Source: Gemmatimonadales bacterium
GTDB taxonomy: Bacteria > Gemmatimonadota > Gemmatimonadetes > Gemmatimonadales > GWC2-71-9
Reading direction: 5' to 3'
Assembly (NCBI GenBank): GCA_025927545.1
Contig: JAICLE010000003.1
Span: forward strand, 20,923 to 84,922
Length of the DNA: 64,000 nucleotides
Below, piece by piece: positions 12,954 through 47,204 of the stretch (positions are counted from its first letter, which is position 1; the number at the start of each line of letters is the position of its first letter). The notes below the pieces were generated by a model, which saw nothing but the letters and a program-made list of their open reading frames with translations, did no database searches and had not been told where the DNA came from. A program made the translations under genes and the position numbers.

Positions 12954-14990
12954 ATGCCAGCCTCCACCGATCCCCTCGACAGCCTGGTCCACTTGTCCCA
13001 CCTCCTCGGCCGGGAGACGCGCCTGGTTCAACCCGGTGGTGGAAACACGTCGATCAAGCTGGGTGACGCACTCCTGGTGAAGGGCAGCGGCACCGACCTC
13101 CGCACCATCGGGCGCGAGGGCTTTACCCGCCTGTCGCTCGCGCGCCTGGCACCGCTGGCCGCGGCCGACGCCATGAGCGACGCCGACATGATGCGCTTCA
13201 TGGCGAGCTGCATGCTGCAGGAGGGCCCCGCGCCCAGCGTGGAGACTCCGCTGCACTTCCTGCTGCCGCATCGCGTCGTCGCCCACACGCACGACGTCGC
13301 GACGATGAGCCTGACCAACGTCCCCGACGGCACGGCGGAGCGGCTGATCGGCGAGCTGTTCGGCGGCAGGATCGTCTACGTCCCGTACAGCCGGCCCGGC
13401 TTCCCGCTCGCCAAATCGGTACGCGGGATCGTCGACCGGATCCCGCCCGATGCGATCGGGCTCACGCTGGCGCACCACGGGCTGGTGGTCTGGGGGGATG
13501 ATGGGGAGCAGGCGCATGCCCGTCTGGTGGAGGTCGTGGCGCGCATCGACGAGTACCTGGCCGCCTGCGGGCGCGGCCGATTGCTGCTCGGGGCAGTTCG
13601 CAATCCTGGCCCCGCCACCGAGCAGCGGCGTCGCTTGGCGGAGCTGGTGCTGCCGGTCGTGCGCGGAAGCCTGAGCCAGGGGCCGCCAGGCCGCCCGGAG
13701 CGGGTGGTTCTCCACTACGACGACGCCGACGACGTGCTGGCCACCCTCGGGGGAGAGCGGGTACCGGAGCTGGTGCGGCGCGGGATGGCGACGCCGGAGC
13801 ACCTGCTCCGCGCCGGCCGGCTGCCGGTGTGGCTCGACCTCGACCTGGCGGCGCCGGCGGAGCAGTTGACGGCGGAGGTGCGCAGCAGACTCGCCGCCGC
13901 GCGTGCGGAGTACGAGGAGTACCACCTGCGCCACGCCGCGCCCGGCGAGCGCCCGCTCGACGACTGGGCCAAGGTGGTGCTCGCGCCCGGGCTCGGGCTG
14001 ATCACGGCATTCACCGACAAGCGGAGCGCGGTGACCGCGAACCTCTGCTACCGGGCGACGCTCGAGGCCATCGCCGGCGCGGAAGCGGTGGAGCGCTTCG
14101 AGTTCATCGCCGAGCGGGACGTGTTCGAGTTCGAGCACTGGCCGCTGGAGCGTCGAAAGGTAGAGGAACAGAGTGCGCGAGACCGTGCCGGTAAGGAGCT
14201 CCCGCGCCATGTGGTGGTGGTGATCGGCGGCGGCAGCGGCATCGGGAAGGCGGCCGCACTCCGGTTCGCGGAGGAGGGCGCGCACGTCGTCGTGGCGGAC
14301 CTCGACGGCGCGCTGGCGGAAGCCGTGGCGGCGGAGCTCGCGGCCCGATTCCCCGGCCGGCTGCTCGGCCTGCCGGCGGACGTGCGCGACGATGCCAGCC
14401 TCGACGACCTGTTCGGTCGTACGGTGCTCGAGTTCGGCGGCCTCGACTCGCTGTTCTACACCGCCGGGCTGCCGCCACGGTTCGCGCCGGTCACCGAGAT
14501 CCGGCGGGAGGACCTGCAGCGGCAGCTCGAGGTGCACTACCTGGGTGCGGTCGGCGCGATCGGACGGGCGGCCACGATCATGCGTCGCCAGGGACTCGGC
14601 GGGGCGATCGTGGCGTCCGTGTCCAAGGCGGCGCTGGTGCCGGGGCGTGAAGCGGTCGCCTACGGCGGGAGCAAGGCGGCGCTGCTGCAGGCGCTCAGGG
14701 TGGCTGCCGTGGAACTGGGGGGCGACGGCATCCGGGTGAACGCCATCAACGCCGATCAGGTGGACACGCCGCTGTTCCGCCGCTTCGTCGGCGAGCGGGC
14801 CGCGAGGCGCGGGGTGACGGAGGGGGAGCAGCTCGAGAGCTACCGCCGACGGAATCTCATGGGCGTGGGCCTCATTCCCGCGGAGGCGGTGGCCGATCTG
14901 GCGGTCCTGCTCGCGAGCGAGCGGTTCCGCTTCACCACGGGCGACATCCTGACCGTGGACGGCGGGCTGGCGGAGGGGTTCCCCCGGTAG
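12954..14990 (+). CDS. Bifunctional class II aldolase / short-chain dehydrogenase (rhamnulose-1-phosphate aldolase/SDR type)
   Basis: Start MPASTDPLDSLVHLSHLLG...GGGNTSIK (ATG 12954). The C-terminal SDR has VVVIGGGSGIGKAAA and YGGSKAA. About 678 aa, as expected for this fusion family. Confidence 0.88.
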   Translation: MPASTDPLDSLVHLSHLLGRETRLVQPGGGNTSIKLGDALLVKGSGTDLRTIGREGFTRLSLARLAPLAAADAMSDADMMRFMASCMLQEGPAPSVETPLHFLLPHRVVAHTHDVATMSLTNVPDGTAERLIGELFGGRIVYVPYSRPGFPLAKSVRGIVDRIPPDAIGLTLAHHGLVVWGDDGEQAHARLVEVVARIDEYLAACGRGRLLLGAVRNPGPATEQRRRLAELVLPVVRGSLSQGPPGRPERVVLHYDDADDVLATLGGERVPELVRRGMATPEHLLRAGRLPVWLDLDLAAPAEQLTAEVRSRLAAARAEYEEYHLRHAAPGERPLDDWAKVVLAPGLGLITAFTDKRSAVTANLCYRATLEAIAGAEAVERFEFIAERDVFEFEHWPLERRKVEEQSARDRAGKELPRHVVVVIGGGSGIGKAAALRFAEEGAHVVVADLDGALAEAVAAELAARFPGRLLGLPADVRDDASLDDLFGRTVLEFGGLDSLFYTAGLPPRFAPVTEIRREDLQRQLEVHYLGAVGAIGRAATIMRRQGLGGAIVASVSKAALVPGREAVAYGGSKAALLQALRVAAVELGGDGIRVNAINADQVDTPLFRRFVGERAARRGVTEGEQLESYRRRNLMGVGLIPAEAVADLAVLLASERFRFTTGDILTVDGGLAEGFPR

Positions 14991-15013
14991 TCGCGCGCGA
15001 TCACATCGGGTGG

Positions 15014-15042
15014 TTGTCACAGCCTGTCGCGATCCTTACCTT
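15014..15042 (+). promoter_or_regulatory. Candidate promoter upstream of rmuC
   Basis: TTGTCA (15014-15019), 17-nt spacer, TACCTT (15037-15042). A hairpin follows at 15044-15051/15069-15076. See findings for the alternative RecA-NDp-like reading. Confidence 0.35.
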
Positions 15043-15134
15043 GGTCGGGTCGGCAGATCCCCACCGCTGACCCGACTTCACATCATCACCGCGCTTCTGC
15101 GGCCACTCCGCCCGGCATCCGCCCAGGGAGAGTC

Positions 15135-16433
15135 ATGGACGTCCCCAGCCTGCTGCTCGGCATTGCGCTCGGCCTCGTGGCCGGTGGCATCGCCGCCTGG
15201 CTCGCCGGCCGCGGCACCACCGCACGGCTCGAGGAGCGGGTGGCAGCCGAGCGCCGCGCGGGGGAGGAGAAGCTCGCCCTCCTCGCGCAGGCGGAGTCCA
15301 AGCTGCGCGATGCCTTCGCCGCGCTCTCCGCGGAGGCCCTCCGGCGGAACAACCAGTCGTTCCTCGATCTTGCCCGGACCAGCCTGGGCGAGTTCCAGCA
15401 GTCCGCGTCGTCCGAGCTGGAGCAGCGGCAGAAGGCGGTGGGCGACCTCGTCCGGCCGATTCAGGAGGCGCTCGCCCGGGTGGACGGGAAGCTCGGGGAG
15501 GTCGAGAAGGAGCGGATCGCCAGCTACGCCGCCCTGGTGGAACAGGTGCGGGCGATGGCCCGGACGCAGGAGGCCCTGCAGGCCGAAACCGGCAAGCTGG
15601 TCAAGGCGCTCCGCGCGCCGCAGGTGCGCGGGCGCTGGGGCGAGATCCAGCTCAAGCGGGTGGTCGAGATGGCCGGGATGCTCGACTACTGCGACTTCGA
15701 GGAACAGGCGAGCGTCGAGACGGCGGACGGCCGGCTCCGGCCCGATCTGATCGTCCGGCTCCCGGGCGGCAAGACCGTCGTCGTGGACGCGAAGGCCCCG
15801 CTCGCCGCGTACCTCGACGCGATCGACGGCAAGGGCGACGACGACGCGCGCGAGGCGCTGCTCCGGGACCACGCCCGCCAGGTGCGGGAGCACATGGTGG
15901 ACCTCGGAGGCAAGGCGTACTGGAACCAGTTCCAGCCCGCGCCCGACTTCGTCGTCATGTTCCTTCCCGGTGAGGCCTTCTTCAGCGCCGCATGCCAGCA
16001 CGACCCGTCGCTGATCGAGTTCGGTGTAAGCCGGCAGGTGATTCCGGCCAGTCCGACCACCCTGATCTCGCTGCTCCGGGCGATCGCGTACGGCTGGCGC
16101 CAGGAGCGGATCGCGCAGAACGCGCAGGAGATCAGCGAGCTGGGGCGGGAGCTGTACGAGCGGATCGCCACGATGGCCGAGCACTTCGACGGGCTTGGCC
16201 GGGCGCTCGAGCGGTCGGTCGAGACGTATAACCGGGCCGTGGGCTCGCTCGAGAGCCGGGTGCTGGTCTCCGCCCGGCGCTTCCGGGAGCTGGGGGTGGC
16301 GGGGGAGGAGCTGCCCGCACCGCCATCGATCGACCGGGCGGTGCGGGGTGTCGTCGCCGTGGAAATGACGTCGATGCTGCCTGAACTGGCCGTGGCGCCG
16401 GCCCGTCCGGCGACGTTCCCCGAGTCCCACTGA
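15135..16433 (+). CDS. rmuC: DNA recombination protein RmuC
   Basis: N-terminal TM helix ([19 protein letters not shown]), coiled-coil region, and C-terminal [21 protein letters not shown] nuclease-like core typical of RmuC. Confidence 0.9.
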
Positions 16434-16438
16434 CCAGG

Positions 16439-16759
16439 GTGCCCAGACGCTCGAAGGGCCGGTTCCCCCCGTTCCACCTGGCCGACAGCCTGCACGACGC
16501 GCCGGTGGCATCGGTGCTGGACCTGCATGGCTTCGGCGCCGGCGAGGTGCCCGCGGCGCTCCGGAATTTTCTCGCCACCTGGCAGCGGCGCGGCCGCGGC
16601 CTCGTGGTGCACGTGATCACCGGACGCGGCCGGAACTCGGCCCACGGGCCCGTGCTCCGCGGCAAGGTGTCGGCACTCCTCAAGGGAGAGCTCGCCACGC
16701 TCGTTGCCGATTGGGGGCCCGATGAAAGCGATGGCGGGTTCAAGGTAAGGCTCCGGTAG
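16439..16759 (+). CDS. Smr-domain protein (small MutS-related nuclease)
   Basis: LDLHG and HVITGRGRNS motifs. GTG start 6 nt after the rmuC stop. Confidence 0.82.
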   Translation: MPRRSKGRFPPFHLADSLHDAPVASVLDLHGFGAGEVPAALRNFLATWQRRGRGLVVHVITGRGRNSAHGPVLRGKVSALLKGELATLVADWGPDESDGGFKVRLR

Positions 16760-16874
16760 CGTCCGTCGGTCCTGCGTTCCCGCAACATTCCGTCTCCGGT
16801 ACAGCGCCGACAGGAAGGCTCGTCTGGCCCAGATTCAGCTCGTCCTCGCCCACGATCCCCTGCGGCTGCTCGAA

Positions 16875-19800
16875 ATGGCGGCGGACGGCTTCCTCACCCC
16901 CCAGCCAGGGACGCGCGATCAGCCGTTCCCCTCGCCGTCCTATCTTCTCGCGCTGCGCCAGGGCGGGCTGCGGGACGATCTGATCGCGCTCGCCGCGGCG
17001 CGCGGGGTGCCCGGCTGGTTCGACCCACCGCTCTGCACCTTCCACGACCTGCCCGACTGGCTCGGCGGCACCGAGCGCAAGCCGTGCGACGACTTCGAGC
17101 GCGCTGTGATCCTGGGTGGCGTGCTCCGCCGGCTGGGCGGTGAGGTGTTCGGACGGATGCACCGGGCGGAGGACTTCATCGGCGCGGTGGACCGGCTGTT
17201 CGGGGAGCTCATCGCCGAAGGGGTCGAGCCGGATGGGTTCCGGGCGTCGCTCGAGGGCTGCGGCCAGCGCGACCAGTTCGAGCGGCAACGCGACAGCGAA
17301 CTGGCCATTGCGTACGCGGAATACGGCGCGGCACTCGGGGCAAAGGGGCGGCGCGACGGGCGGGACGCATGGCTCGATTGCGCGCGCGCCATTGCGGCCG
17401 ATCCCGAGGGGCTGCTGCGGCGGCTCGGGGGCAGGCGGGAAATCCGGCTGCTCGGATTGCAGGACCTCCGCGGTGGGTGGCGGAGGCTGCTGCGGGCGCT
17501 CGCAGCGACGCCGGAGCTCCACCGGGTGGTGATCTATTCGTGGGGCGAGCTGGACCTGGGCGAGGGTATCGAAGTTGAGGTCCGGCGCGCGGATTCGCCT
17601 GGCGCCGGGAGCGCGACGCCGGCCGGGACCGTGCAGGTGATCTCCGCCCCCGATGTCGAGCGCGAGCTGGAGCTCGTGGCCACCCGCGTCCGCGCGCTCG
17701 TGGATGGCGGCACGCCGCCCGCGCGCATCGCGGTGGTGACCCGGCAGGCGCGGCCGTACGTGGACCTGGCGCTCACCGCCCTCGACAAGGCCGCCGTGCC
17801 GGCCACGGCGCGCCGCCGCATCGCGCTGTGCGAGGTGCCGGTGGTGCGCGCGCTCCGCGCCCTCCTGGCCGCCGCGGCCGACGGCTGGTCGCGCCACGGA
17901 CTGGTGGAGCTGGCCGACCAGCCCTGCGCCGCCACCGAGCTGGACGCGCGGATTCTCAACTTCGCCGGTTTCCGCCGCCGGGTGCGCGGGCTCCGCGCGT
18001 GGCACCAGGCGCTCGGGGAGCTGGTGACCGACGCCCGGCGCGAGGACGAGCGGAGGCGCGCCGGGGAGGAACCCGACGACCATCGGAAGCCGCTCCCGCC
18101 GTTGCTGCGCTGCGAGCGTGCCGCCGCGCAGTTCGAGCGCTTCGCCGAGCGCGCGGCCGCGCTGGACGGCACGCACACGCTCCGGCACTGGCTCGGCTGG
18201 CTGGACGATTTTCTCACCGCCGACCCGTGGCACCTCCGCGAACTCATCTACCAGGTCCCCGGCCGCCGGTTCGACATCGTCCGGCTGGACCTGAACGGCT
18301 GGCGGGGGCTCACGGACATCGTGCGGGGCTGGCGCGCGGCGCTCGACGAGTGGGGCGGCGCCAACGCGCCGATCGACGTCGCCGAGTTCTACCGCCAGTT
18401 CTCCGACCTGCTCGACGGCGATGTCGCCCTCTGGACCGAGACGCAGCGCGGGGTGCAGGTCCTGGAAGGTCTGGCCGCGGCCTACCGCACGTTCGATCAC
18501 ATGTTCCTCGTGGGCCTCGAGGCCGGGCGGTTCCCGCTGCCGGCGTCCACCTCGCCGATTCTCGACGAGCGCGAGCGGCAGGTGCTGCATGAGGCCGGAC
18601 TTCCGCTCGAGCTGCGGGCGACCTGGGACGCCCGCGAGCGCGAGCTGTTCGGCGTGCTGGTCGCGGGCGCGAAGCGGCTCACCGTCTCCTACGCCAGACT
18701 CGATCCCTCCGGCCGCGAGGTGGTCCGCTCCGCGCTGGTCGAAGAGCTGGGTGACACCTGCCTGCTCACGGGGGCGGAGGAGGGCGAGGAGATCCCCGCG
18801 TCGTGCGTTTCCATCCCGGGTATCCGGCTCTACGCCGCCCCCGAGCTGCGCGAGCAGGCCGTCCACGCCGCGCGAATCGAATGGGGGCGCCGGAGCCGCG
18901 ACCCCTCGCCCTGGAACGGGCTGATCGAGGACCCGGCGCTCGTCGCGCACCTCGCGCGGGAGTTCGGGGACGACCGGCTCTGGAGCCCGACCCAGCTCGA
19001 GTCCTACGCCAAGTGTCCCTGGTCCTATCTCTCCGCCCGACTGCTGGGCCTCGACCGCCTGGGCGATCCCGACGAGGAGATGGACGCCGCCACCCGGGGC
19101 TCGCTGCTGCACGACGCACTCGCGCGCTTCTACGGCCGCGCGCAGGAGCGGACGGCCGCCCCGGTCTTTCTCCGGGCAATCGATCTGGGCTGGGCGCGGC
19201 CGTTGATGGTCCAGGCGATGGACGATTCGCTCGCCGACGCCCGCGGCCACAGGTGGCTCGGCAACGGCCTGCTGCTCCCCGCCAAGCGGGAGGAGCTGCG
19301 GCGCATGCTCGAGCGGTTTCTCGACTGGGAGGTGCAGGAACACGAAGACATGGAGAACCCGAAGAAGAAGAACGCGCCTCGCATGGTGCGGACCGCCGTC
19401 ACCGGTCACGAGGTCGCGTTCCATGACATCGTACTCGACCGGGGTGGCGTGCGCTTCCGCTTCCGCGGCTCGGTGGACCGGGTCGAAGTCGGCGTGGATG
19501 AGCGCATCGACAACCCCGGACGGTTCATCGCGGCCGTGGACTACAAGACAACGAAGTACGCCGTCCCCGGTGCCGGCGCGAAGGAGGCCTGGGGTGACGG
19601 CGTGGTGCTTCAGGTGCCACTCTACGCCTACGCACTTTCCCTGGTGCGGCCCGGAAGCGAGACCGCCCGCGTCGAGTACCGCGCCCTCAGGAAGCCGGAA
19701 TCGGTGCACGCGCTCGAGCTGTATCAGTTCGACCAACGTACCGGCGGCGCGGTACACAACGAGGCCGCCGCCGAGCTGATGGAGGCGGCGCTCGACCAGG

Positions 19801-19937
19801 TCGCCCACCACGTGCTCCGGGCCCGGCGCGGCGAGTTTCCGGCGTCGCCGCCGGACTCCTGTGGCTGCCCCGAGTTCTGCCATGCGATCGAGATCTGCCG
19901 GACGGCCGGCGGTCCCCGCCGGAACGGCTGGAAATGA
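16875..19937 (+). CDS. AddB-like helicase-nuclease subunit (PD-(D/E)XK nuclease, no Walker A)
   Basis: C-terminal nuclease has AAVDYKTTK, QVPLYAYAL and Cys signature SYAKCPWSY ... CGCPEFCHAIEIC. The true start is probably upstream: the frame is open from 16749, and a CTG at 16824 is preceded by AGGAAGG. Confidence 0.85.
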   Translation: MAADGFLTPQPGTRDQPFPSPSYLLALRQGGLRDDLIALAAARGVPGWFDPPLCTFHDLPDWLGGTERKPCDDFERAVILGGVLRRLGGEVFGRMHRAEDFIGAVDRLFGELIAEGVEPDGFRASLEGCGQRDQFERQRDSELAIAYAEYGAALGAKGRRDGRDAWLDCARAIAADPEGLLRRLGGRREIRLLGLQDLRGGWRRLLRALAATPELHRVVIYSWGELDLGEGIEVEVRRADSPGAGSATPAGTVQVISAPDVERELELVATRVRALVDGGTPPARIAVVTRQARPYVDLALTALDKAAVPATARRRIALCEVPVVRALRALLAAAADGWSRHGLVELADQPCAATELDARILNFAGFRRRVRGLRAWHQALGELVTDARREDERRRAGEEPDDHRKPLPPLLRCERAAAQFERFAERAAALDGTHTLRHWLGWLDDFLTADPWHLRELIYQVPGRRFDIVRLDLNGWRGLTDIVRGWRAALDEWGGANAPIDVAEFYRQFSDLLDGDVALWTETQRGVQVLEGLAAAYRTFDHMFLVGLEAGRFPLPASTSPILDERERQVLHEAGLPLELRATWDARERELFGVLVAGAKRLTVSYARLDPSGREVVRSALVEELGDTCLLTGAEEGEEIPASCVSIPGIRLYAAPELREQAVHAARIEWGRRSRDPSPWNGLIEDPALVAHLAREFGDDRLWSPTQLESYAKCPWSYLSARLLGLDRLGDPDEEMDAATRGSLLHDALARFYGRAQERTAAPVFLRAIDLGWARPLMVQAMDDSLADARGHRWLGNGLLLPAKREELRRMLERFLDWEVQEHEDMENPKKKNAPRMVRTAVTGHEVAFHDIVLDRGGVRFRFRGSVDRVEVGVDERIDNPGRFIAAVDYKTTKYAVPGAGAKEAWGDGVVLQVPLYAYALSLVRPGSETARVEYRALRKPESVHALELYQFDQRTGGAVHNEAAAELMEAALDQVAHHVLRARRGEFPASPPDSCGCPEFCHAIEICRTAGGPRRNGWK

Positions 19938-22900
19938 AGCGGCCGACCGACTCCCAGTGGGAGGCGATCCGCACGACGGACCGGCACCTGCTGGTGTCGG
20001 CCGGCGCCGGTACCGGCAAGACGAGCACCGTCGTCGGCCGCATCCTCTTCCTGCTCGGCGCCGAGATCCGGGGCGAGACCTGCACCGCCCCGCTCGCGCT
20101 GCGTGACATCGGCGCGATCACCTACACCAACGCCGCCGCCGCCGACCTCAAGCGCAAGCTGCGGAAGGAGCTCCGCGCCGCCGGCCGGCGCGATGCGGCC
20201 TATGAAGTGGACTCGGCGAGGATCGGCACGATCCACGGCTTCTGCGGCGATATCCTGCGCGAGTTCGCGCTCAGAGGCGGCTGGAGCCCGTCGGTGCGCG
20301 TGCTGGAGGAGACCGACGGCACGGCACTCGTGGCCGAGTCGGTGCACGACGTGGTGCTGGCGGCGCTGGAGGAGCGGTCGGTCGAGGGACTCGATGGGCT
20401 CTTCGCCGCGTGGCCGGTGGGCAAGGTCGAGGGCTGGGTGTCGGGCCTGGTGGAAGAGAGCGCGCGGCTCGACCGCATCGCCGCCGAGCGGGACGGACTC
20501 GGCGCGCTCGAGCGCTCGGTGGTGGACCTGGCGCAGCTCGCGCGCACGGAGCTCACCCGCCGCCTGCGGGAGGCCGGCGCCGTGGATTTCGATCGGATGA
20601 TCGTCTGGACCCGTGACCTGCTCGCGCGCGATCCGCTCGTCCGTCGGACGCTCCAGCGGCGGCTCCGCACTCTCATCGTGGATGAGTTTCAGGATGTGGA
20701 CCCCGCGCAGCGGGAGATCGCCTACCTGCTCGGTGAGCCGGCCTCCGGTCGCGCCGACACCACGCGGCTCATGCTCGTGGGCGATCCGAAGCAGAGCATC
20801 TTCCGGTTTCGGCGGGCCGACGTGACGGTGTGGCGCCAGGTGGAAGACGACTTCGCCGGCCGTGGACTCGGCGCGGTGGTGGCGCTGGCGGACAACTTCC
20901 GGAGCGTGGAACCCGTGCTGGCGTTCGTGGACGCGACGGTGGGGAAGGTTCTCGACGCGCCGATCGACGGCAAGGCGCCGCAGCAGTTCGAGGTCGCGTA
21001 TCAGGCGGTCCGGGCCGCACGCGCCGCGGCGGCGCCGGCGACGGACGAGGCGCCGGTGGAATTGCTCTTCGTCACCGCCGCGGACGGCGAGAAGCCGAAT
21101 GCGCTCGAGCTCCGCGCGGCGGAGGCCGCCGCCACCGCGCGCCGGGCCCGTGAGCTGAACGCACGAGGGCTCGACTGGCGGGAGATGGCGGTGCTCCTGC
21201 CGGTCTGGACGGACGCCGACCTCTACGAGGCGGCGCTCCGGCGTGCGGGCATTCCGACGTACGCGCTCCGCGGCGAAGGCTTCTACGGCCGCCGCGAGGT
21301 GCTCGACCTGATCCTCGCGCTCGAGGCCCTGCGCGACCCGCGCGACGACCGCGCGCTGCTCGGCTTTCTCCGAAGCCCCTTCGTTGGCCTGCGGGACGAG
21401 ACGCTGCTCGAAATCGCCCGCCAGGCCGACCAACCCTACTGGGACTATCTCGACATCGTCGAGGTGAAGGAGCAGCCGCGGCTCGACCGTGCGCGGGCGT
21501 TGCTCGAGGAGCACGTCGCCCTCCGCGACCGGATCCCGGCCGACCGCCTGCTCGAGCACCTGCTCGACCGGAGCGGCTATCTCGCCCACCTGCACGTGCT
21601 CGGCGCGGGGGCCGAGCAGGCGCTCGCCAACGTACGCAAGTTCGTCCGCATCGCCCGGCTCTCGCCCGAGGCGAGCGTCGGCGACTTCCTCCGTGCGCTG
21701 CGCGAGGCGCGTGACCGCGGGGTGCGCGAGGGCGACGCGCGGCTCTACGGCGAGGGCGAGAACGTCCTCACCATCACCTCGATCCACAGCGCGAAAGGCC
21801 TCGAGTGGTCCGTGGTGTTCTGGTGCGACCTGCTCCGGAAGCCGCAGGGCGTGACGGGCGACGTCCTCGTGGGCCGTGACCGGATCGTGCTGCGCGACCC
21901 CGAGTGCGAGGCGAAGGATCAGCCGCTGCACTACCTGTCGCTCAAGCACGACGAGGAAGCCGAGCAGTGCGCCGAGCGGAAGCGGCTCTGGTACGTCGCG
22001 GCGACGCGGGCGAAGGACCGGCTGATTCTTTCGGCGTTGTGCGAGGGAAAGCCTCCCCGCCTGTGTCCCGCCGAGGCGATCCTCGGCGAGCTGGGCGGGA
22101 TCGCGCGGGTGGGCGGCGAACGGGTTGCCTACGTCGGACGGGACGGCAAAACGTTCGATGCGAGCGTGCGAACCTGTGACGTGGGCGAGACGGAGCCTCG
22201 GCCGGCGCCCGGCGCGGCGGTGCGGAATGGCCGGTTCGAGCCCGGCCCGCTTCCCGACCTCCTGTCCCCGGTTGTAATCCAGGCCGGCCGGACGCGCCAT
22301 TCGGCGACCGAGCTGATGCTCCATGCCCGCTGCCCGCAGCGACACTGGTTCCGCTTTGTCGCGGGGGTCCGCGAGCCGCCGGTGGACCGATCGCGACCCG
22401 AGTACACCAGCGCGATCGCCAGGGGGCAGATCGTGCACGAGGTGCTCGAGCGGCTCGACCGGGACGACGCGCTCGACGCGCTGCTCGACGCGGCCATTGG
22501 CCGCTGGCAGCCGGAAGATGCCGCGCCCGATGCGTCGCCCCGGCGTACGCTCCGCGACGAGCTGCGTGCCGAGGTGTTGGCCGTCGCCCATGATCCCGGG
22601 TACCGCGCGCTCGCCGACCAGCCCACCGCCCGGCGGGAGCTACCCTTTCTCGCGATCCTCGGCGCCGATGAGGTGGCGGAGGGCAAGGTGGATCTCGTGG
22701 CGCTCGAGGGAGACCGGCTGGCCGTTCTCGACGTAAAGACCGGCGGTGGCGATGCCGAGGAGGCGCACCGCAAGGCGCGGCAGTACGATCTGCAGCGGGA
22801 CACCTACGTGATCGCGCTCGAACGGATCGGCGGCATCCCGGTCGGACGGTTCGCGTTCCAATTTTCGGCGGCCGGTCTGCAAATCTCGGAGGCGATCACC

Positions 22901-23071
22901 GCCGAGGCGAGGCGCGCGGCGGCAGCGGAAATCCCGCGAATCATGGCGCACATGGGCGTGGGACGGCCGGGCCTCGCGCGGGATCCCGAGGACTGCCGCT
23001 GGTGCGGGTACAAGCGCGTGGGGTGGTGCGGCGGCGTCCCCGCGGCCGGCGACTCGCCTGGCAGCGAATGA
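19934..23071 (+). CDS. AddA-like UvrD/Rep-family helicase with C-terminal PD-(D/E)XK nuclease
   Basis: Helicase motifs GAGTGKT, VDEFQD, GDPKQSIFRFRRAD, SIHSAKGLEWSVVF, YVAATRAKDRL. Nuclease motifs VDLVAL...LDVKTGG, QRDTYVIAL. The ATGA overlap at 19934-19937 couples it to the upstream gene. Confidence 0.9.
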   Translation: MKRPTDSQWEAIRTTDRHLLVSAGAGTGKTSTVVGRILFLLGAEIRGETCTAPLALRDIGAITYTNAAAADLKRKLRKELRAAGRRDAAYEVDSARIGTIHGFCGDILREFALRGGWSPSVRVLEETDGTALVAESVHDVVLAALEERSVEGLDGLFAAWPVGKVEGWVSGLVEESARLDRIAAERDGLGALERSVVDLAQLARTELTRRLREAGAVDFDRMIVWTRDLLARDPLVRRTLQRRLRTLIVDEFQDVDPAQREIAYLLGEPASGRADTTRLMLVGDPKQSIFRFRRADVTVWRQVEDDFAGRGLGAVVALADNFRSVEPVLAFVDATVGKVLDAPIDGKAPQQFEVAYQAVRAARAAAAPATDEAPVELLFVTAADGEKPNALELRAAEAAATARRARELNARGLDWREMAVLLPVWTDADLYEAALRRAGIPTYALRGEGFYGRREVLDLILALEALRDPRDDRALLGFLRSPFVGLRDETLLEIARQADQPYWDYLDIVEVKEQPRLDRARALLEEHVALRDRIPADRLLEHLLDRSGYLAHLHVLGAGAEQALANVRKFVRIARLSPEASVGDFLRALREARDRGVREGDARLYGEGENVLTITSIHSAKGLEWSVVFWCDLLRKPQGVTGDVLVGRDRIVLRDPECEAKDQPLHYLSLKHDEEAEQCAERKRLWYVAATRAKDRLILSALCEGKPPRLCPAEAILGELGGIARVGGERVAYVGRDGKTFDASVRTCDVGETEPRPAPGAAVRNGRFEPGPLPDLLSPVVIQAGRTRHSATELMLHARCPQRHWFRFVAGVREPPVDRSRPEYTSAIARGQIVHEVLERLDRDDALDALLDAAIGRWQPEDAAPDASPRRTLRDELRAEVLAVAHDPGYRALADQPTARRELPFLAILGADEVAEGKVDLVALEGDRLAVLDVKTGGGDAEEAHRKARQYDLQRDTYVIALERIGGIPVGRFAFQFSAAGLQISEAITAEARRAAAAEIPRIMAHMGVGRPGLARDPEDCRWCGYKRVGWCGGVPAAGDSPGSE

Positions 23072-24144
23072 AGTCGCCCAAGGTCCAGCGCTGGATCGAC
23101 CTCCTGGCCGCGCTCCTCACCCGACGCTTTCCCGTCACGCTCGACGACCTCACCCGCGAGGTTCCGGCCTACGGGAAGGGCCAGGCCAAGGAGGCGCTGC
23201 GGCGGATGTTCGAGCGCGACAAGGACGAGCTGCGCGCGTTCGGCGTGCGGATCGAGACGGTCGAGATGCCGGAGGACGATGCCGTCGGTTACCGGCTGCT
23301 CGCCCGCGACTTCTACCTGCCCTATCTCGCGCTCATGGAAGAGGGCCGGCCGAGCAAGCCGCGCAAGCTGGGCACATACGGGTACGGCGCGCTCCCGACG
23401 GTCACCTTCGAGCCCGACGAGCTGGCCGCCGTGGCCGACGCGGGCGCGCGCGTTCGCGAGTTGGGTGACCCGCTCCTGGCCGAGCACGCCGAGTCGGCGC
23501 TCCGGAAGCTCGCCGTGGACCTGCCGCTCGATGCCGCGCGGCCCGGCGATGCCCGGATAGCGCCCCCCCCGCCCGTTGCCGACCCGCGGGTCTTCGAGGT
23601 CCTCGGCTCCGCGCTGGAGCACCGGAAGCGGGTGCAGTTCGAGTATCACGCGATGGGTGACGATGCCACCGGCCGGCGGGAGGTCGAGCCGTACGGCCTC
23701 TTCTTCCTGAATCAGCACTGGTATCTCGCCGCGCGTGCCGAGGGCGAAGCGATCGTCAAGAACTACCGGCTCAGCCGGATCAGCGGACCGGAGGAGAACG
23801 CGAGCAGGCCCGGCACCCGGGACTACGAGATTCCCGCCGGCTTCCGGCTCCAGGAGCACGCCCGTTCGAGACAGGCATGGGAGCTGGGCGACGGGGACGC
23901 GGTCGACGCCGTCGTCGAGATCCGTCGCGCCGATGGGGCGGCGCTGGCCGCGGCGCGCCTCGGCGATCCCGTCCCCGATCAGCCGGACCGGCGGCGTTTC
24001 CTGGTCCGCCGGCGCGACGCGTTCGCCCGGTGGCTGCTCTCGTTCGCGGGCGACGTCGTGCCGCTCGCGCCCGCGGACCTGGTGGCCGAATACGCCGAGC
24101 TGGTTCGGCGCACCCTCGCGCTCTACCGGCAGCCGGCCTCGTGA
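23068..24144 (+). CDS. PafB/PafC-type HTH-WYL transcriptional regulator (first of pair)
   Basis: QRWIDLLAALLTRRFPVTLDDL...RRMFERDKDELRAFGVRIETV (PafBC-type wHTH). WYL core FFLNQHWYLAARAEG. The ATG at 23068 overlaps the addA-like stop (ATGA). Confidence 0.85.
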   Translation: MKSPKVQRWIDLLAALLTRRFPVTLDDLTREVPAYGKGQAKEALRRMFERDKDELRAFGVRIETVEMPEDDAVGYRLLARDFYLPYLALMEEGRPSKPRKLGTYGYGALPTVTFEPDELAAVADAGARVRELGDPLLAEHAESALRKLAVDLPLDAARPGDARIAPPPPVADPRVFEVLGSALEHRKRVQFEYHAMGDDATGRREVEPYGLFFLNQHWYLAARAEGEAIVKNYRLSRISGPEENASRPGTRDYEIPAGFRLQEHARSRQAWELGDGDAVDAVVEIRRADGAALAAARLGDPVPDQPDRRRFLVRRRDAFARWLLSFAGDVVPLAPADLVAEYAELVRRTLALYRQPAS

Positions 24145-25088
24145 GCGACACCGCCACCGCGCAGCTCCGCCGCATTCTCCAGGTCATCCCGCAGCTCGGC
24201 GATGGCGAGCCGCACCCGATCGCCGAGGTGGTCGAGCGGGCGGGCGTCGACCGTGCCGTGCTGCTCAGGGACCTGCGGACGATCACCGAGCGGCTCGAGG
24301 TGCCGGGCGGGTTCGTGGAAGGTCTCCAGATCTTTCTCGATCCCGAGACCGTGGCCATCAACCCGTCGCACTTCCTGCGTCCCATGCGGCTCAACCGCCC
24401 GGAGCTCTGCGCGCTGGAGCTGGGCCTCGCGATGCTGAGGGGCTCGCGCCCCGCCGAGGAGCATCGCGCGATCGACCGGGCCCGTGACCGCCTCCGCCGC
24501 GCCATCTCCGCCGCGGGTTCCTCGGGGGACGACGATCGCTTCGCCTCCCTCGGCCCGGCCGGCGATCCGGAGCATCTCCGCCGCCTCCGGGCCGCGCATC
24601 GCGACCGGCGCAGGGTCCGGCTCACCTATCGGAAACCGGATGCCGAGGAAGCCGCCAGCCGGCTGCTCTGTCCCTACGGCATCGTGTTCACGCGGGGGAT
24701 GTGGTACGTGGTGGCGAACTGCGGTGAGGAAAGCCTGCGGATCTTCCGGCTCGATCGGGTCGAGGGCGTGGAGGTGCTGGAGGAGCGCTACCCGGCGCCC
24801 AGGGATTTCTCGCTCGACGCGGTGGTGCGGGACGGGAAGGCGTTCCAGTCGACGGACGCGGAGACACTGCGGGTGCGCTACTCACCCGCCATCGCGCGCT
24901 GGATCGCCGAGCGCGAGGGCAAAGCGGTGGAGCCCGACGGCTCACTGGTGCTTGAGCATCCGCTGGCGGACGAGGACTGGGCGGTGCGGCATGTCCTGCA
25001 ATACGGGCCGGACGCCGAGGTGCTGGAGCCCCGGGAGGTGCGCGAGGCCATCGTCCGGCGGCTGGCGGGAGTGCGGGTCAGGGGCTAG
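24141..25088 (+). CDS. PafC-type HTH-WYL transcriptional regulator (second of pair)
   Basis: LRRILQVIPQLGDGEPHPIAEVVERAGVDRAVLLRDLRTI...RPMRLNRPELCALELGLAML. WYL core FTRGMWYVVANCGEE. The GTG at 24141 overlaps the upstream stop (GTGA). Confidence 0.82.
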   Translation: MSDTATAQLRRILQVIPQLGDGEPHPIAEVVERAGVDRAVLLRDLRTITERLEVPGGFVEGLQIFLDPETVAINPSHFLRPMRLNRPELCALELGLAMLRGSRPAEEHRAIDRARDRLRRAISAAGSSGDDDRFASLGPAGDPEHLRRLRAAHRDRRRVRLTYRKPDAEEAASRLLCPYGIVFTRGMWYVVANCGEESLRIFRLDRVEGVEVLEERYPAPRDFSLDAVVRDGKAFQSTDAETLRVRYSPAIARWIAEREGKAVEPDGSLVLEHPLADEDWAVRHVLQYGPDAEVLEPREVREAIVRRLAGVRVRG

Positions 25089-25097
25089 GATGCCGGG

Positions 25098-25916
25098 ATG
25101 ACCGATATTACCGACCGATGCCGTGAGTTCCGCCGGCTTCACCAGTCCGGCTGCTTCGTGATTCCCAATCCCTGGGACCCGGGCAGCGCCCGCACGCTCG
25201 CCCGGCTCGGCTTTCCGGCGCTCGCGACGACCAGCTCCGGTTTTGCCTGGTCCCTGGGCCGGCGGGACAACAGCATCCCGCTGGAGACAGTGCTGGTCCA
25301 TCTGCGGGCCATCGCCGAGAGCGTCGAGGTGCCGGTCAACGCCGATTTCGAGGGCGGGTTCGCGATCGAGCCCGCCGAGGTCGGCTCCAACGTTGCCGCG
25401 GCGGCGCGCACGGGGGTCGCCGGCCTCTCCATCGAGGATTCCACCGGCAATCCATCGCGTCCGCTGTTCGACTTCAACCTGGCGGTCGAGCGGATTCGTG
25501 CCGCCCGCCGTGCCATCGACGAGAGCGGCACGGGGGTGCTGCTCACCGGCCGGTCCGAGGGGTTCATCGCCGGCCGGCCCGACCTGCCCGAAACCATCCG
25601 CCGGCTCACGGCCTACGCCGAAGCAGGCGCTGAGTGTCTCTACGCGCCGGGCATCCGCAGCATGGCCGATATCGCGGCGGTCGTGCGGGCGGTGGCCCCC
25701 AGGCCGGTCAACGTGCTGGTCGGGAGCGACTTCGCCACCGTGACCGAGCTGGCCGGGGCGGGCGTCCGCCGGATCAGCGTGGGCGGCGCGCTCGCGCGAG
25801 CGGCCTGGACCGGGTTCCTTGCGGCGGCAAGGGAGATCGCGGAGAAGGGGACGTTTACGAACCTCGGGCGGGCGGTGTCGCACGCGGAACTCGACGGGTC
25901 GTTCGGGGCGGGGTAG
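25098..25916 (+). CDS. Isocitrate lyase/PEP mutase-family enzyme (2-methylisocitrate lyase / phosphorylmutase-like)
   Basis: N-terminus FRRLHQSGCFVIPNPWDPGSARTLARLGFPALATTSSG and the 272-aa length fit the ICL/PEPM family. Confidence 0.85.
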   Translation: MTDITDRCREFRRLHQSGCFVIPNPWDPGSARTLARLGFPALATTSSGFAWSLGRRDNSIPLETVLVHLRAIAESVEVPVNADFEGGFAIEPAEVGSNVAAAARTGVAGLSIEDSTGNPSRPLFDFNLAVERIRAARRAIDESGTGVLLTGRSEGFIAGRPDLPETIRRLTAYAEAGAECLYAPGIRSMADIAAVVRAVAPRPVNVLVGSDFATVTELAGAGVRRISVGGALARAAWTGFLAAAREIAEKGTFTNLGRAVSHAELDGSFGAG

Positions 25917-25960
25917 GGGCGGGTGCCGGCGGGTGACGTTCGCGGGAAAATCACGCCACT

Positions 25961-25987
25961 GTCATCCCTCGCTGCGCTCGGGATGAC
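25961..25987. other. Hairpin element between convergent genes (possible bidirectional terminator / REP-like unit)
   Basis: GTCATCCC (25961-25968) pairs with GGGATGAC (25980-25987) across an 11-nt loop, TCGCTGCGCTC. Confidence 0.4.
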
Positions 25988-26047
25988 GCTTGCCGTCAGG
26001 TTGTGCTGCCTCTCCCGCCTTCCATCCGCTCGCGACCTCCGCCACCG

Positions 26048-28195
26048 CTACTGCACGTGCACCAGCTTTCCTGCCGACGGCACCCCGTTCCGATTCAGAA
26101 TGAAGAGCTGGTAGTGGCCGGGCGGTGCGAGATTCGGGCTGGCCGGCGCGGTCACGTCCACGCCGGTCGCTGTCGGCGTGAAGCTCAACGTGTTCGCGCG
26201 CTGGCCCGCGTCGAAGGCGTGGGTCACCGAGCCCAGCTTGATCCAGCGGACGCCGGTGATCTGCGCGGCGTTCGGCGTGGCGACGGAGAACGTCTGGCCG
26301 TACGACACGTCCGTGGGCGCGCTCGTGATCGTGGGCCGTGCACCCTTGAACAGGTAGGGCGGCGAAAAGATCTCGTGGTTGTTCTCGTCGGGCACCACCT
26401 GGATGCCGGCCATCGCGTTGCCGCTCGCGCCGTGGAGCACGGTGCCGTCCGGCAGGAGCAGCGAGACCGAGTGATAGACCCGCATCTTGCTGTTGGCCGC
26501 GAGCGTGGTCCACTGGTTGGTGGCCGGGTTCCAGAGCTCCGCGTTGCGGGCAGCGTCGCCCACGTTGATGTCCACGAAGCCGCCGCCGGTGGTGCCGCCG
26601 GTGATCAGCACCTGGCCGTCCGGCAGGACGGTGGAATTGAGGTGCCGCCGGGGGAACGCCATCGTGCCGGCGCTGGTCCATGCCGGTGACGCCGCGTTCA
26701 GATCGATCTTCTCGGCGATGGCCGTCGGCACGTTGGCCTTGGGATCCGGCGTGGGCCAGCCGGTATCACCGCCGCCACCGGTGTAGAGGATCTTGCCCGC
26801 CTCGTACATGACGGCTGTGCCGTAGTCCCGGTTCTTCAGATAGATGTGCATCGGGCCGCTGATCCACCGCCCGCGCCCCCCCGCCGACGATCCGTCCACG
26901 TCGAACCAGCGCGACTGGATCCGCTCGCCGGCCATGAAGACCAGCCCGTTCTTCGGGTCCACGAAGTTGCGCGGGTAGTACGGGATCTCCAGCCCGTTGC
27001 CGCCCGGGAGCTGGACCCACTGGTTGTTCTCCCAGATCTCCGGGATCTCCACCACCTGACCCGCCGAGTCCCGCCCGGCCATCGTGAGCATCCGGCCGTC
27101 CGGCAGCTCGGTGACGGTCGGGTACCAGCGCCCGAAAGCCATCTTCGGAAGTCCCGGCTGGAAGCTCTCGCTCGCCGGGTCGAAGATCTCGGTGACGTCG
27201 ATGCCCTTGTCGTCTGCCTTGTGGCCGCCGGACGTCATGAGCTTTCCGTCCGCCATGAACGCATGGCCGGCGCAGAAGAGCATGGTGTCCACCTCGATCA
27301 TCCGCGCGGTGGTGGGCGGCCCGGCGGCCGGGTCCCACAGCCGCGGCCGGCCACCCATGGTGCCGTTCACGCCCGAGTCGTACTTGCCCCATGCCAGGAT
27401 CTTGCCCGTGGGCAGCAGATGCATGTGCAGCGGCACCATGGGCCAGTCGATGACCGGGCCCCATTTCCCGGTGGTCGCCTCGGCGGGGAGCGGCTGCACT
27501 TCGACGGGCGCGGAGGTCACGCTGCTCGCGCCGGCCGTGAAGGCGAGGGTAAAAGATCCCGTGCCGCGGATGCCAAGATCGCCGAACCGCGCGACCCCGC
27601 CCGCATCCGTGGTGGCGGTGGTGCTCCCCTCGAGCGTGCCGCTCCCCGAGGCCAGCGCCGCCGTCACCTGGACGCCGCTCGCCGGGGCGTTGTTGGCGTC
27701 CGTCACCTGAAGCACGGGCTGGACGCTGGGATCGAACACCTCGCCGGTCAGCGCCGAGGTGGGGGGATTGGTGGCGATCGCGATGCCGGCACCGCCGGTT
27801 CCCTCGGTCGCCGTCGCCGTGAAGGTGATCGGCGAGCCCTGCAGCCCGCTTACGGAGGCGGTCGTCGTCTGCTCGCCCGGGGTGGGGCCGAGCACCCGCT
27901 GGACCGCGGCCCGACCATCGGAGCCGGACTGAACGGTGGTCGCAGAGACGCTTCCGGCCCCAGCCGCATCCCAATGCACGGTCACGCCCTGGACCGGATT
28001 GCCGTCGGCATCGGTGACCAGCACCACCAGGGGGCTGGGGAGCGCGGCGCCCACGGTGCCGCTCTGCCCGTCGCCCGCGACTATCTCGATGGCGGCCGCG
28101 GTGGTCGGCTGGGTGGTGTCGCCGCCGCAGTGAAGCGAAACGGCGGCGAGGATAGTGGCGAGAGCTGAATGGGTGAACTGCCGGGCTCGGGTCAT
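26048..28195 (-). CDS. Galactose oxidase/GlxA-like radical copper oxidase with N-terminal Ig-like (Big) domains
   Basis: N-terminal IEIVAGDGQSGTVGAALPSPLVVLVTDADGNPVQGVTVHW (Big-type). MLFCAGHAF (Cys of the Tyr-Cys cofactor), RVYHSVSLLLPDGTV (Tyr-His ligands). DUF1929-like C-terminus ...APPGHYQLFILNRNGVPSAGKLVHV. Confidence 0.85.
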   Translation of the reverse strand: MTRARQFTHSALATILAAVSLHCGGDTTQPTTAAAIEIVAGDGQSGTVGAALPSPLVVLVTDADGNPVQGVTVHWDAAGAGSVSATTVQSGSDGRAAVQRVLGPTPGEQTTTASVSGLQGSPITFTATATEGTGGAGIAIATNPPTSALTGEVFDPSVQPVLQVTDANNAPASGVQVTAALASGSGTLEGSTTATTDAGGVARFGDLGIRGTGSFTLAFTAGASSVTSAPVEVQPLPAEATTGKWGPVIDWPMVPLHMHLLPTGKILAWGKYDSGVNGTMGGRPRLWDPAAGPPTTARMIEVDTMLFCAGHAFMADGKLMTSGGHKADDKGIDVTEIFDPASESFQPGLPKMAFGRWYPTVTELPDGRMLTMAGRDSAGQVVEIPEIWENNQWVQLPGGNGLEIPYYPRNFVDPKNGLVFMAGERIQSRWFDVDGSSAGGRGRWISGPMHIYLKNRDYGTAVMYEAGKILYTGGGGDTGWPTPDPKANVPTAIAEKIDLNAASPAWTSAGTMAFPRRHLNSTVLPDGQVLITGGTTGGGFVDINVGDAARNAELWNPATNQWTTLAANSKMRVYHSVSLLLPDGTVLHGASGNAMAGIQVVPDENNHEIFSPPYLFKGARPTITSAPTDVSYGQTFSVATPNAAQITGVRWIKLGSVTHAFDAGQRANTLSFTPTATGVDVTAPASPNLAPPGHYQLFILNRNGVPSAGKLVHVQ

Positions 28196-47126: not shown

Positions 47127-47204
47127 GCGAGCCCCCACGAGGACGAAACCGCGGGCGAGCGGGGACCAAGAATGGAGGGAGGGTGAGACAATCTTGTATG
47201 CTAA

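Follow-up and report, generated by a model that had tools for sequence, protein, structure and literature searches.

Why would a pair of WYL-domain regulators be tied, stop codon to start codon, to a DNA helicase-nuclease? This question is raised by a stretch of 64,000 nucleotides (nt) from a Gemmatimonadales bacterium, a soil organism of the little-studied phylum Gemmatimonadota (contig JAICLE010000003.1, positions 20,923 to 84,922 of the forward strand; the whole stretch is called the window and is numbered from its first letter), in which two consecutive open reading frames (ORFs), ORF1 and ORF2, follow the genes of an AddAB-like enzyme. An earlier, sequence-only reading of the window had proposed that an enzyme generating single-stranded DNA (ssDNA) is hard-wired to an ssDNA sensor of the PafB/PafC kind, with auto-induction. 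Our analysis lends this proposal comparative support, namely the synteny of pafB and pafC (together pafBC) with three different resection machines and a promoter motif before their operons. From comparisons of sequence, we consider it likely that rmuC-smr-addB-addA-pafB-pafC is a PafBC-type, ssDNA-activated, self-inducing break-response operon under a hybrid promoter at 15014-15042. The genes of the presumed operon are the following:

15135-16433, + strand: rmuC, DNA recombination protein of the RmuC family, first gene of the operon (Pfam RmuC, 4.4e-102)
16439-16759, + strand: smr, small Smr-domain protein, starting 5 nt past rmuC (Pfam Smr, 1.6e-7)
16875-19937, + strand: addB, AddB-like protein with an apparently degenerate helicase-like N-terminal part and a PD-(D/E)XK nuclease (Pfam PDDEXK_1, 1.2e-29)
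19934-23071, + strand: addA, AddA-like protein with a UvrD-type superfamily 1A (SF1A) motor and a RecB-type nuclease (Pfam UvrD-helicase, 2.7e-48; UvrD_C; PDDEXK_1)
23068-24144, + strand: ORF1, PafB-like protein of 358 amino acids (aa) with a winged helix-turn-helix (wHTH), a WYL and a WCX domain; predicted DNA-reading and main ssDNA-binding subunit
24141-25088, + strand: ORF2, PafC-like protein of 315 aa with the domains HTH_PafC, WYL and WCX; predicted partner subunit

Subunit types and functional residues of the gene pair

The translation of ORF1 contains RRMFERDKDELRAFGVRIETV and NQHWYLAARAEG and matches the Pfam domains WYL (1.8e-17) and WCX (1.4e-5). Its N-terminal helix-turn-helix (HTH) has no Pfam match; residues 4-89 align with the HTH of Mycobacterium smegmatis PafB (7P5X_AY, domain E-value 4e-9). 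The translation of ORF2, which contains RPMRLNRPELCALELGLAML and RGMWYVVANCGEE, matches HTH_PafC (PF19187; 1.4e-10, 41.4 bits with a cut-off of 32), WYL (3.6e-20) and WCX (9.6e-18). When compared with all PDB sequences, ORF1 matched only M. smegmatis PafB (7P5X_AY, 9FND_X) and Arthrobacter aurescens PafBC, the latter best through its PafB half. For ORF2, the best PDB match was the PafC half of 6SJ9 (domain score 68 bits), followed by M. smegmatis PafC. Both are distant in sequence from the actinobacterial proteins, with low identity and 47.9-91.5 bits over full length. The two ORFs can be aligned with each other over the WYL region only (33% over 101 aa), and they are thus distinct subunit types and not the product of a recent duplication. 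By these sequence matches ORF1 is of the PafB and ORF2 of the PafC subunit type, and the earlier description of a PafB/PafC-like pair is borne out by both the Pfam and the PDB searches.

In the actinobacterial PafBC system (M. smegmatis and M. tuberculosis; fused in A. aurescens; PDB 6SJ9, 7P5X, 9FND), two paralogous wHTH-WYL-WCX genes likewise stand side by side, and the PafC-type HTH belongs to the second. Mycobacterial PafBC is a 1:1 heterodimer that ssDNA activates; it recruits RNA polymerase with sigmaA (sigma adaptation) and so turns on the LexA-independent DNA damage response. In M. smegmatis, the GTC triplet of the -26 element is recognised through its two guanines by PafB R46 and R50 (PMC8635444). 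The ssDNA tunnel is lined by PafB R181, Y196, R211 and R214 together with PafC R201 and R204, and binding requires the four PafB residues (PMC11804915). Both groups of residues are shared by the pair in the window. ORF1 R46 and R50, within RRMFERDK, correspond to the GTC readers, and ORF1 R204, Y219, R234 and R237 to the arginines and the tyrosine of the PafB tunnel; every one of these positions is invariant in 49 Gemmatimonadales PafB sequences. ORF2 R203 and R206 correspond to the PafC tunnel arginines and are invariant in 19 PafC sequences. M. smegmatis PafB R204 is not kept, the residue in ORF1 being E227, and R208 corresponds to K or R.

A Foldseek search with an AlphaFold2 model of ORF2 returned DriD (8TP8, E-value 1.6e-13), A. 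aurescens PafBC and M. smegmatis PafBC as the best matches, all at about 1e-13, and BrxR and CapW at about 1e-7. DriD of Caulobacter crescentus, the best structural match, is also a wHTH-WYL-WCX protein and an ssDNA-switched activator of an SOS-independent damage response. DriD, which binds an upstream site, is however a homodimer encoded by one gene, whereas the two subunits encoded in the window have diverged and differ in HTH type. BrxR and CapW share the wHTH-WYL-WCX fold, and CapW also senses ssDNA; unlike the pair in the window, they are homodimeric repressors that act on palindromic operators, and their genes precede those of BREX, CBASS and similar systems.

The three stop/start overlaps on which the claim of translational coupling had been built, ATGA at 19934-19937 (addB/addA), ATGA at 23068-23071 (addA/pafB) and GTGA at 24141-24144 (pafB/pafC), are all present in the DNA. 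Overlaps of 4 nt are common in high-GC operons, and here they are a sign of operon membership and nothing out of the ordinary. A simple scan of positions 14800-26200 found neither a consensus sigma-70 promoter nor an excess of terminator-like sites, which is consistent with a single transcript from rmuC to pafC.

Genes and promoters around pafBC in relatives

Relatives of PafC were collected from one genome per GTDB species. The scan yielded 263 stretches, of which the best 80 loci were analysed with 10 kb on either side. These 80 loci are all labelled Gemmatimonadota, bar one in a metagenome-assembled genome (MAG) labelled Bacillota. The closest named homologues of ORF2 come from Gemmatimonadales MAGs (93-97% identity), and many of the JGI records among them are titled 'proteasome accessory factor C'. 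At the level of 50% identity, 195 representatives had an E-value of at most 1e-30 to ORF2.

Two observations were made on these relatives in passing. The Bacillota-labelled MAG (L033, JBLMWC010000019.1) has an addB-addA-pafB-pafC cluster 55-58% identical to that of the window, with the same promoter motif (described below), and its contig is probably mis-binned or mislabelled. The closest of the 50%-identity representatives include natural single-chain PafB-PafC fusions of 685-763 aa (P0123, P0127, P0143, P0144, P0146, P0152, P0168 and P0185), comparable to the fused form of PafBC that some Actinobacteria have.

Wherever a locus extends 5' of pafC, the gene immediately before it is pafB. In 54 loci, at least 3.3 kb of DNA was present on the 5' side of pafB, and these were sorted into classes by the genes found there:

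11 of 54 loci: addB-addA of the window type, on the same strand and 0-36 nt away
2 of 54 loci: addB-addA of the window type, with a Uma2 nuclease gene inserted
4 of 54 loci: addBA in divergent orientation (adjacent in L038 and L080)
10 of 54 loci: a second AddB/AddA-like pair, with 25-31% identity to the window type
3 of 54 loci, plus 2 further truncated loci: recC-recB-recD (e.g. L077)
6 of 54 loci: an SF1 helicase, sometimes fused to nuclease-like domains
13 of 54 loci: no recognised helicase-nuclease

Thus, pafBC stands beside an end-resection machine (AddAB, the second AddAB-like pair or RecBCD) in 30 of the 54 loci, and the machine is mostly upstream and overlapping, sometimes divergent. 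This adjacency, to a machine that is not always of the same type, is the strongest argument for a functional linkage. The addB-addA-WYL-WYL order is accordingly not peculiar to the window, as the earlier reading had left to be checked: it is kept in related genomes, and across Gemmatimonadales the association extends to end-resection machines of three different kinds. In MAGs assigned to Gemmatimonas aurantiaca, the second AddAB-like pair is likewise followed by pafBC, and a strict match to the promoter motif described below precedes the genes (site at 2282 in L048 and at 2222 in L066); since this species is cultured, the predicted self-induction is open to standard testing.

A link between the regulator and such an enzyme, the AddAB-like AdnAB, has been described before: in mycobacteria adnA, the gene of one AdnAB subunit, depends exclusively on PafBC (PMC8682763), and adnAB is a core dependent target. 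The functional link of PafBC with an AddAB-like enzyme is therefore established in trans, and here it appears to be fixed in cis. Our literature search found nothing that connects WYL proteins to operons of AddAB or RecBCD, and nothing on PafBC together with Gemmatimonadota.

Inspection of the DNA 5' of the first gene of each operon revealed a recurrent motif, cTGTCA(C/G)A-N9-TAnnnT. The pattern TGTC-N12-TAnnnT had 81 matches in the 1.17 Mb of loci, while first-order Markov resamples had 19.0 +/- 4.7, and 78 of the 81 matches fell outside called genes. When the spacer was varied from N6 to N21, each length but N12 gave 7-21 matches; with TGTCA as the upstream element, there were 69 matches at N12 and 0-8 elsewhere. 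N12 is the exact spacing of the mycobacterial PafBC motif, tGTCgg(N10)tA(N3)T (PMC8635444). The target promoters of PafBC combine a -26 element that contains GTC with a -10 at a fixed distance and have no -35. Judged from sequence alone, motif architecture and spacing (GTC, 13 nt, TAnnnT) are thus shared with Actinobacteria; the upstream element differs, being TGTCA(C/G)A here and not tGTCgg.

Scores of a position weight matrix (PWM) for this motif are bimodal in independent loci; L086, for example, has two sites scoring 22.6 and 27.4, and all else scores below 5. With a threshold of 14, sites in the relatives were found at the following places:

Directly upstream of addB or of rmuC-smr-addB: L001, L004, L006, L007, L009, L010, L033, L054, L083, L074
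On the opposite strand, for a divergent addBA: L038, L080, L063, L070
Upstream of the second AddB-like gene: L041, L048, L056, L062, L064, L066, L067, L081
Upstream of recC: L077, probably L044
Immediately upstream of a stand-alone pafB: 14 loci

In 38 of 69 loci, pafB has a site 5' of it on the same strand, and no gene of opposite orientation intervenes. The distances from site to pafB are bimodal, either 34-178 nt or 6.2-8.9 kb, and the latter range is the length of the helicase-nuclease genes. In metagenome loci centred on AddA, five of eight have a site upstream of addB, including one (L093) without pafBC downstream, and PafC relatives at only 34% identity still have a site upstream of their pafB. 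The motif also precedes genes for VWA, RCC1-repeat, DUF2779 and ARPP-1/ADP-ribosylglycohydrolase proteins. Since pafBC lies behind its own motif type, positive autoregulation is predicted. This arrangement differs from that in mycobacteria, as the regulator genes are here found inside their apparent target operons or behind their own motif.

Two further promoter arrangements were seen in the relatives. Where addBA and pafBC are divergent (L038 8644-8934; L080 9130-9467), two back-to-back sites stand about 55-60 nt apart, one per operon, and similar pairs occur in L009 (11946/11989), L014, L019, L031, L043 and L082. Loci with a divergent Uma2-family gene upstream of pafB (L009 8780-8898, L010, L016, L020, L024) have no PafBC-type site before pafB; they carry a conserved TAACC(A)TTT element, 'TAACCATTT', about 21 nt before the pafB start (110 nt in L024).

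In the window itself, the regulator-binding region suggested earlier at 15014-15042 does contain a motif of PafBC architecture, as a predicted site:

15014-15042, + strand: PafBC-type promoter candidate (top PWM match of the window; phylogenetic footprint)

This site was recovered only by means of the PWM and of an alignment of orthologous upstream regions. TTGTCACA at 15014-15021 forms the -26-like element, with TGTC at 15015-15018. GATCCT at 15031-15036 is a candidate -10 at the canonical TGTC-N12 spacing, so that the site reads TGTCAC-N10-GATCCT. A second -10-like hexamer, TACCTT at 15037-15042, follows directly and could pair with TTGTCA as a -35 over a spacer of 17 nt. The two overlapping promoter readings may represent one basal and one inducible mode. 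The site at 15015 has the best PWM score in the 64 kb on both strands (17.9, runner-up 10.8) and is found 93 nt 5' of rmuC. In the window, L004, L006 and L007, the DNA before rmuC shares the conserved block GTTGTCACA...GAyCCTTAsCTTGG between diverging flanks, and the tandem -10 variant occurs twice in L017. The runner-up, TGTCTC-N10-CATTCT at 47169-47190 on the minus strand, lies about 100 nt upstream of a gene for a 902-aa M66/CARDB peptidase (44379-47087, minus strand); it is probably due to chance and was treated as noise.

The proposed loop and its competitors

The self-inducing operon would work as follows. A basal level of PafBC would exist, possibly from the TTGTCA-N17-TACCTT reading of the promoter. 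When a double-strand break occurs, AddAB would unwind and resect it and so act as the source of the ssDNA signal. The ssDNA would enter the arginine-lined WYL/WCX tunnel of a heterodimer formed by PafB and PafC. The HTH of PafB would then bind the promoter by reading the GTC within TGTCA, some 26 bp before the point where transcription starts, and PafC would contact region 4 of the sigma factor ('sigma adaptation'). Transcription of the operon would rise upon damage, and more RmuC, Smr and AddAB would be made together with more PafBC, in a positive feedback. Other motif-bearing promoters would be turned on as well, and the loop would fade once the ssDNA is consumed.

Several observations weigh against this proposal. 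Mycobacterial pafBC sits with pafA and is reported not to be damage-induced (PMC7617703), so that autoregulation here would be a departure from the model system, and our literature search did not find a damage response in Gemmatimonadota. The linkage of pafBC to resection genes is frequent, not universal or obligatory: besides the 13 loci without a recognised helicase-nuclease, a reverse test with an AddA query on metagenome contigs found pafBC after addA in two of the six loci with enough downstream DNA. In the window, the strict pattern TGTC-N12-TAnnnT has no match, the first base of the -10 being G instead of T; CTGTCASA has none either. An ordinary sigma-70-like promoter, TTGTCA-N17-TACCTT, is another reading that the site allows. 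The PWM was built from matches to a pattern of our own choosing, and site scores are not independent of that choice, a bias that the Markov and spacing controls address. Finally, the AlphaFold2 model of ORF2 is of moderate confidence, with a mean predicted local distance difference test (pLDDT) of 69 and a predicted template modelling score (pTM) of 0.36.

The promoter ambiguity leads to the best of the competing explanations: an ordinary operon transcribed from a housekeeping promoter TTGTCA-N17-TACCTT, in which PafBC is a passenger that regulates genes elsewhere, with no feedback and no special coupling to AddAB. The site's failure to fit the strict PafBC-type pattern would be expected in that case, its -35/-10-like reading is well spaced and conserved in L004, L006 and L007, the mycobacterial genes are not damage-induced, and 4-nt overlaps are common in high-GC operons. 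We nevertheless judge it unlikely. The simple sigma-70 scan returned no promoter in 14800-26200, and the site is the top PWM match of the window at the PafBC spacing. Moreover, orthologous addB genes elsewhere have strict N12 sites, including the divergent ones of L038 and L080 (one site each way) and that of L093, which has no pafBC, and chance would hardly have joined pafBC to resection machines of three different kinds.

In three non-orthologous machines the last gene overlaps pafB stop to start, and this could also reflect a physical partnership, in which PafBC is made in step with the resection machine since it binds the enzyme or the emerging ssDNA. It would then serve as a post-translational accessory or receive ssDNA by direct hand-off, beside or instead of its role in transcription. 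An ssDNA-binding WYL domain that stimulates a helicase is known for Thermotoga Pif1 (cited in PMC6789036). Both subunits, however, have complete HTH domains with invariant DNA-reading residues, the divergent and unlinked arrangements in L038, L080, L003 and L093 speak against an obligate complex, and the promoter motif accounts for the linkage without physical contact. We regard a partnership of this kind as very unlikely.

The least probable explanation, and one that our results do not support, is the defence gate that the earlier reading had offered as its alternative, with the WYL pair as a BrxR/CapW-like repressor that is released by ssDNA or phage cues and gates the helicase-nuclease and RmuC against invading DNA: PADLOC gives generic matches to WYL, a GajB-like UvrD and a DRT-associated RmuC, the pafBC neighbourhoods of relatives are variable (Uma2 nucleases, VWA proteins, AAA ATPases, ARPP-1/ADP-ribosylglycohydrolase, some behind the motif) and WYL regulators of Moraxellaceae control both damage response and defence (PMC12392091), but PADLOC recognises no defence system as such, the enzyme is of AddA/AddB make-up with B. 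subtilis AddA as its best solved relative, RecBCD takes the same place in other species, the operon carries a PafB/PafC pair as its last genes and not a single regulator gene in front, the fold is nearer to the activators DriD and PafBC (about 1e-13) than to BrxR and CapW (about 1e-7), the motif has the -26/-10 architecture of a promoter and no operator palindrome, and the window's flanks hold ordinary chromosomal genes.

If the self-inducing operon is accepted as the best reading, what is new in it? The PafBC system itself was already known; as far as sequence comparison can tell, the phylum, the conservation of the promoter architecture outside Actinobacteria, the repeated fusion to differing resection machines and the predicted self-induction are new. 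PafBC and the -26/-10 hybrid promoters have so far been studied in Actinobacteria only, and the breadth of PafBC conservation has been raised as an open question (PMC7617703). By sequence, Gemmatimonadota represent a second, distant lineage. The repeated fusion of pafBC to whichever resection enzyme a species has amounts to a natural experiment, which points to break resection as a main source of the activating ssDNA.

A wider claim is possible but must be put tentatively: PafBC with its sigma-adaptation promoters might not be an actinobacterial speciality and might, in Gemmatimonadota, govern a LexA-independent damage response as its master switch, the regulator genes having been captured at least three separate times into operons of non-orthologous resection machines (AddAB, the second AddAB-like pair and RecBCD). 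If this were true, resection-derived ssDNA would be the physiological signal of PafBC, and selection would favour the co-expression, possibly also the physical coupling, of signal generator and sensor in a self-amplifying loop.

The AddAB-like enzyme and the surroundings of the operon

AddA has the Walker A sequence GAGTGKT, and its best relative in the PDB is Bacillus subtilis AddA (3U44_A, 3.8e-46). AddB has no Walker A and carries a C-terminal Cys cluster (Cys714 with Cys996/998/1002/1008); a phmmer search of the PDB gave no match for it. The scores of both proteins are far under the NCBIfam equivalog cut-offs (232 against 707 bits for AddA, 44 against 904 for AddB), and 'AddAB-like' is therefore the right term. 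An active UvrD motor and a RecB-type nuclease in AddA are shared with B. subtilis AddAB, mycobacterial AdnAB and RecBCD. With the AddB of AddAB, the protein here shares the lack of a Walker A, the nuclease domain and the C-terminal Cys cluster, and the gene order, addB then addA, is also the same. Unlike known AddAB, the genes are in an operon with rmuC, smr and a presumed regulator, and AddA also has a C-terminal Cys cluster.

The latter (23006-23035) contains DCRWCGYKRVGWC and comprises C800 with C1021, C1024 and C1032, an arrangement of the Cas4/AddB iron-sulfur type. Both nuclease domains of the AddAB-like enzyme may thus, by their cysteines, hold an iron-sulfur cluster. In B. subtilis AddAB, an iron-sulfur cluster is known from AddB only.

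The 115 nt between smr and addB (16760-16874) had earlier been put forward as a second candidate binding region. We rejected this region as a regulatory spacer or binding site, since it has no PWM match, is mostly addB coding sequence and holds the AddB frame with conserved residues. The last stretch of it, from about 16833 to 16874, codes for IQLVLAHDPLRLLE in the frame of the ATG at 16875, and this segment fits (I/V)xLV(L/I)xxDPxxLLE, the conserved N-terminus of AddB in all relatives. No in-frame ATG, GTG or TTG that could start this segment lies upstream of 16875. The conserved segment and the lack of such codons make a non-canonical start likely, and the gap largely coding. From the sequence, the AddB start is probably at about 16824-16833 (CTG at 16824 or ATT at 16833); alternatively, a start at the ATG at 16875 truncates the protein.

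The order rmuC-smr-addB is retained in L004, L006, L007 and L074. On the 3' side, pafC is followed by one more gene on the same strand:

25098-25916, + strand: gene of the phosphoenolpyruvate (PEP)-mutase/isocitrate-lyase family, 9 nt downstream of pafC (Pfam PEP_mutase, 2.2e-75)

A PEP-mutase-family gene follows pafC in the closest relatives L005-L007 only, and elsewhere PUA-like or unrelated genes take this place. It may be co-transcribed with the operon and is probably a passenger. The PUA-like gene, of about 385 aa and with a weak Pfam match (PF24405, 7.8e-7), follows pafC in about 22 related loci, mostly with a 4-nt overlap (e.g. L001 10977-12122, L004 10933-12090, L044 10948-12102). Downstream of it there is often a gene for a VWA-domain protein of about 420 aa, preceded by a PafBC-type site of its own. 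The PUA-like gene is absent from the window, whose clade has the PEP-mutase-family gene instead.

The G+C content of the window is about 70% throughout. Gene calling based on G+C at third codon positions, followed by Pfam annotation of nearly all other genes of the window, assigned ordinary chromosomal functions to the flanks. Among the genes of the window that were scanned with Pfam (all but a few small ORFs), none was found to encode Pup, a proteasome component, PafA, LexA or RecA, in agreement with the earlier remark that pup and proteasome genes are missing from the window. Likewise, the Pfam-annotated gene tables of the related loci L001, L003 and L004 contain no Pup ligase, Pup or proteasome domains. 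In this the system differs from actinobacterial PafBC, as it does in its host phylum, Gemmatimonadota. The linkage to pafA and the Pup-proteasome is the historical source of the name PafBC and no requirement for the function of the regulator.

ADP-ribosylglycohydrolase genes recur near pafBC. In the window, such a gene is fused to an inositol monophosphatase (8802-10598, minus strand), and in relatives the fusion is to ARPP-1 or protein tyrosine phosphatase (PTPase) domains. Strong PafBC-type sites directly precede the genes in L035 (5176-8876) and L086 (13778-14851), a hint that the regulon may have an ADP-ribosylation branch.

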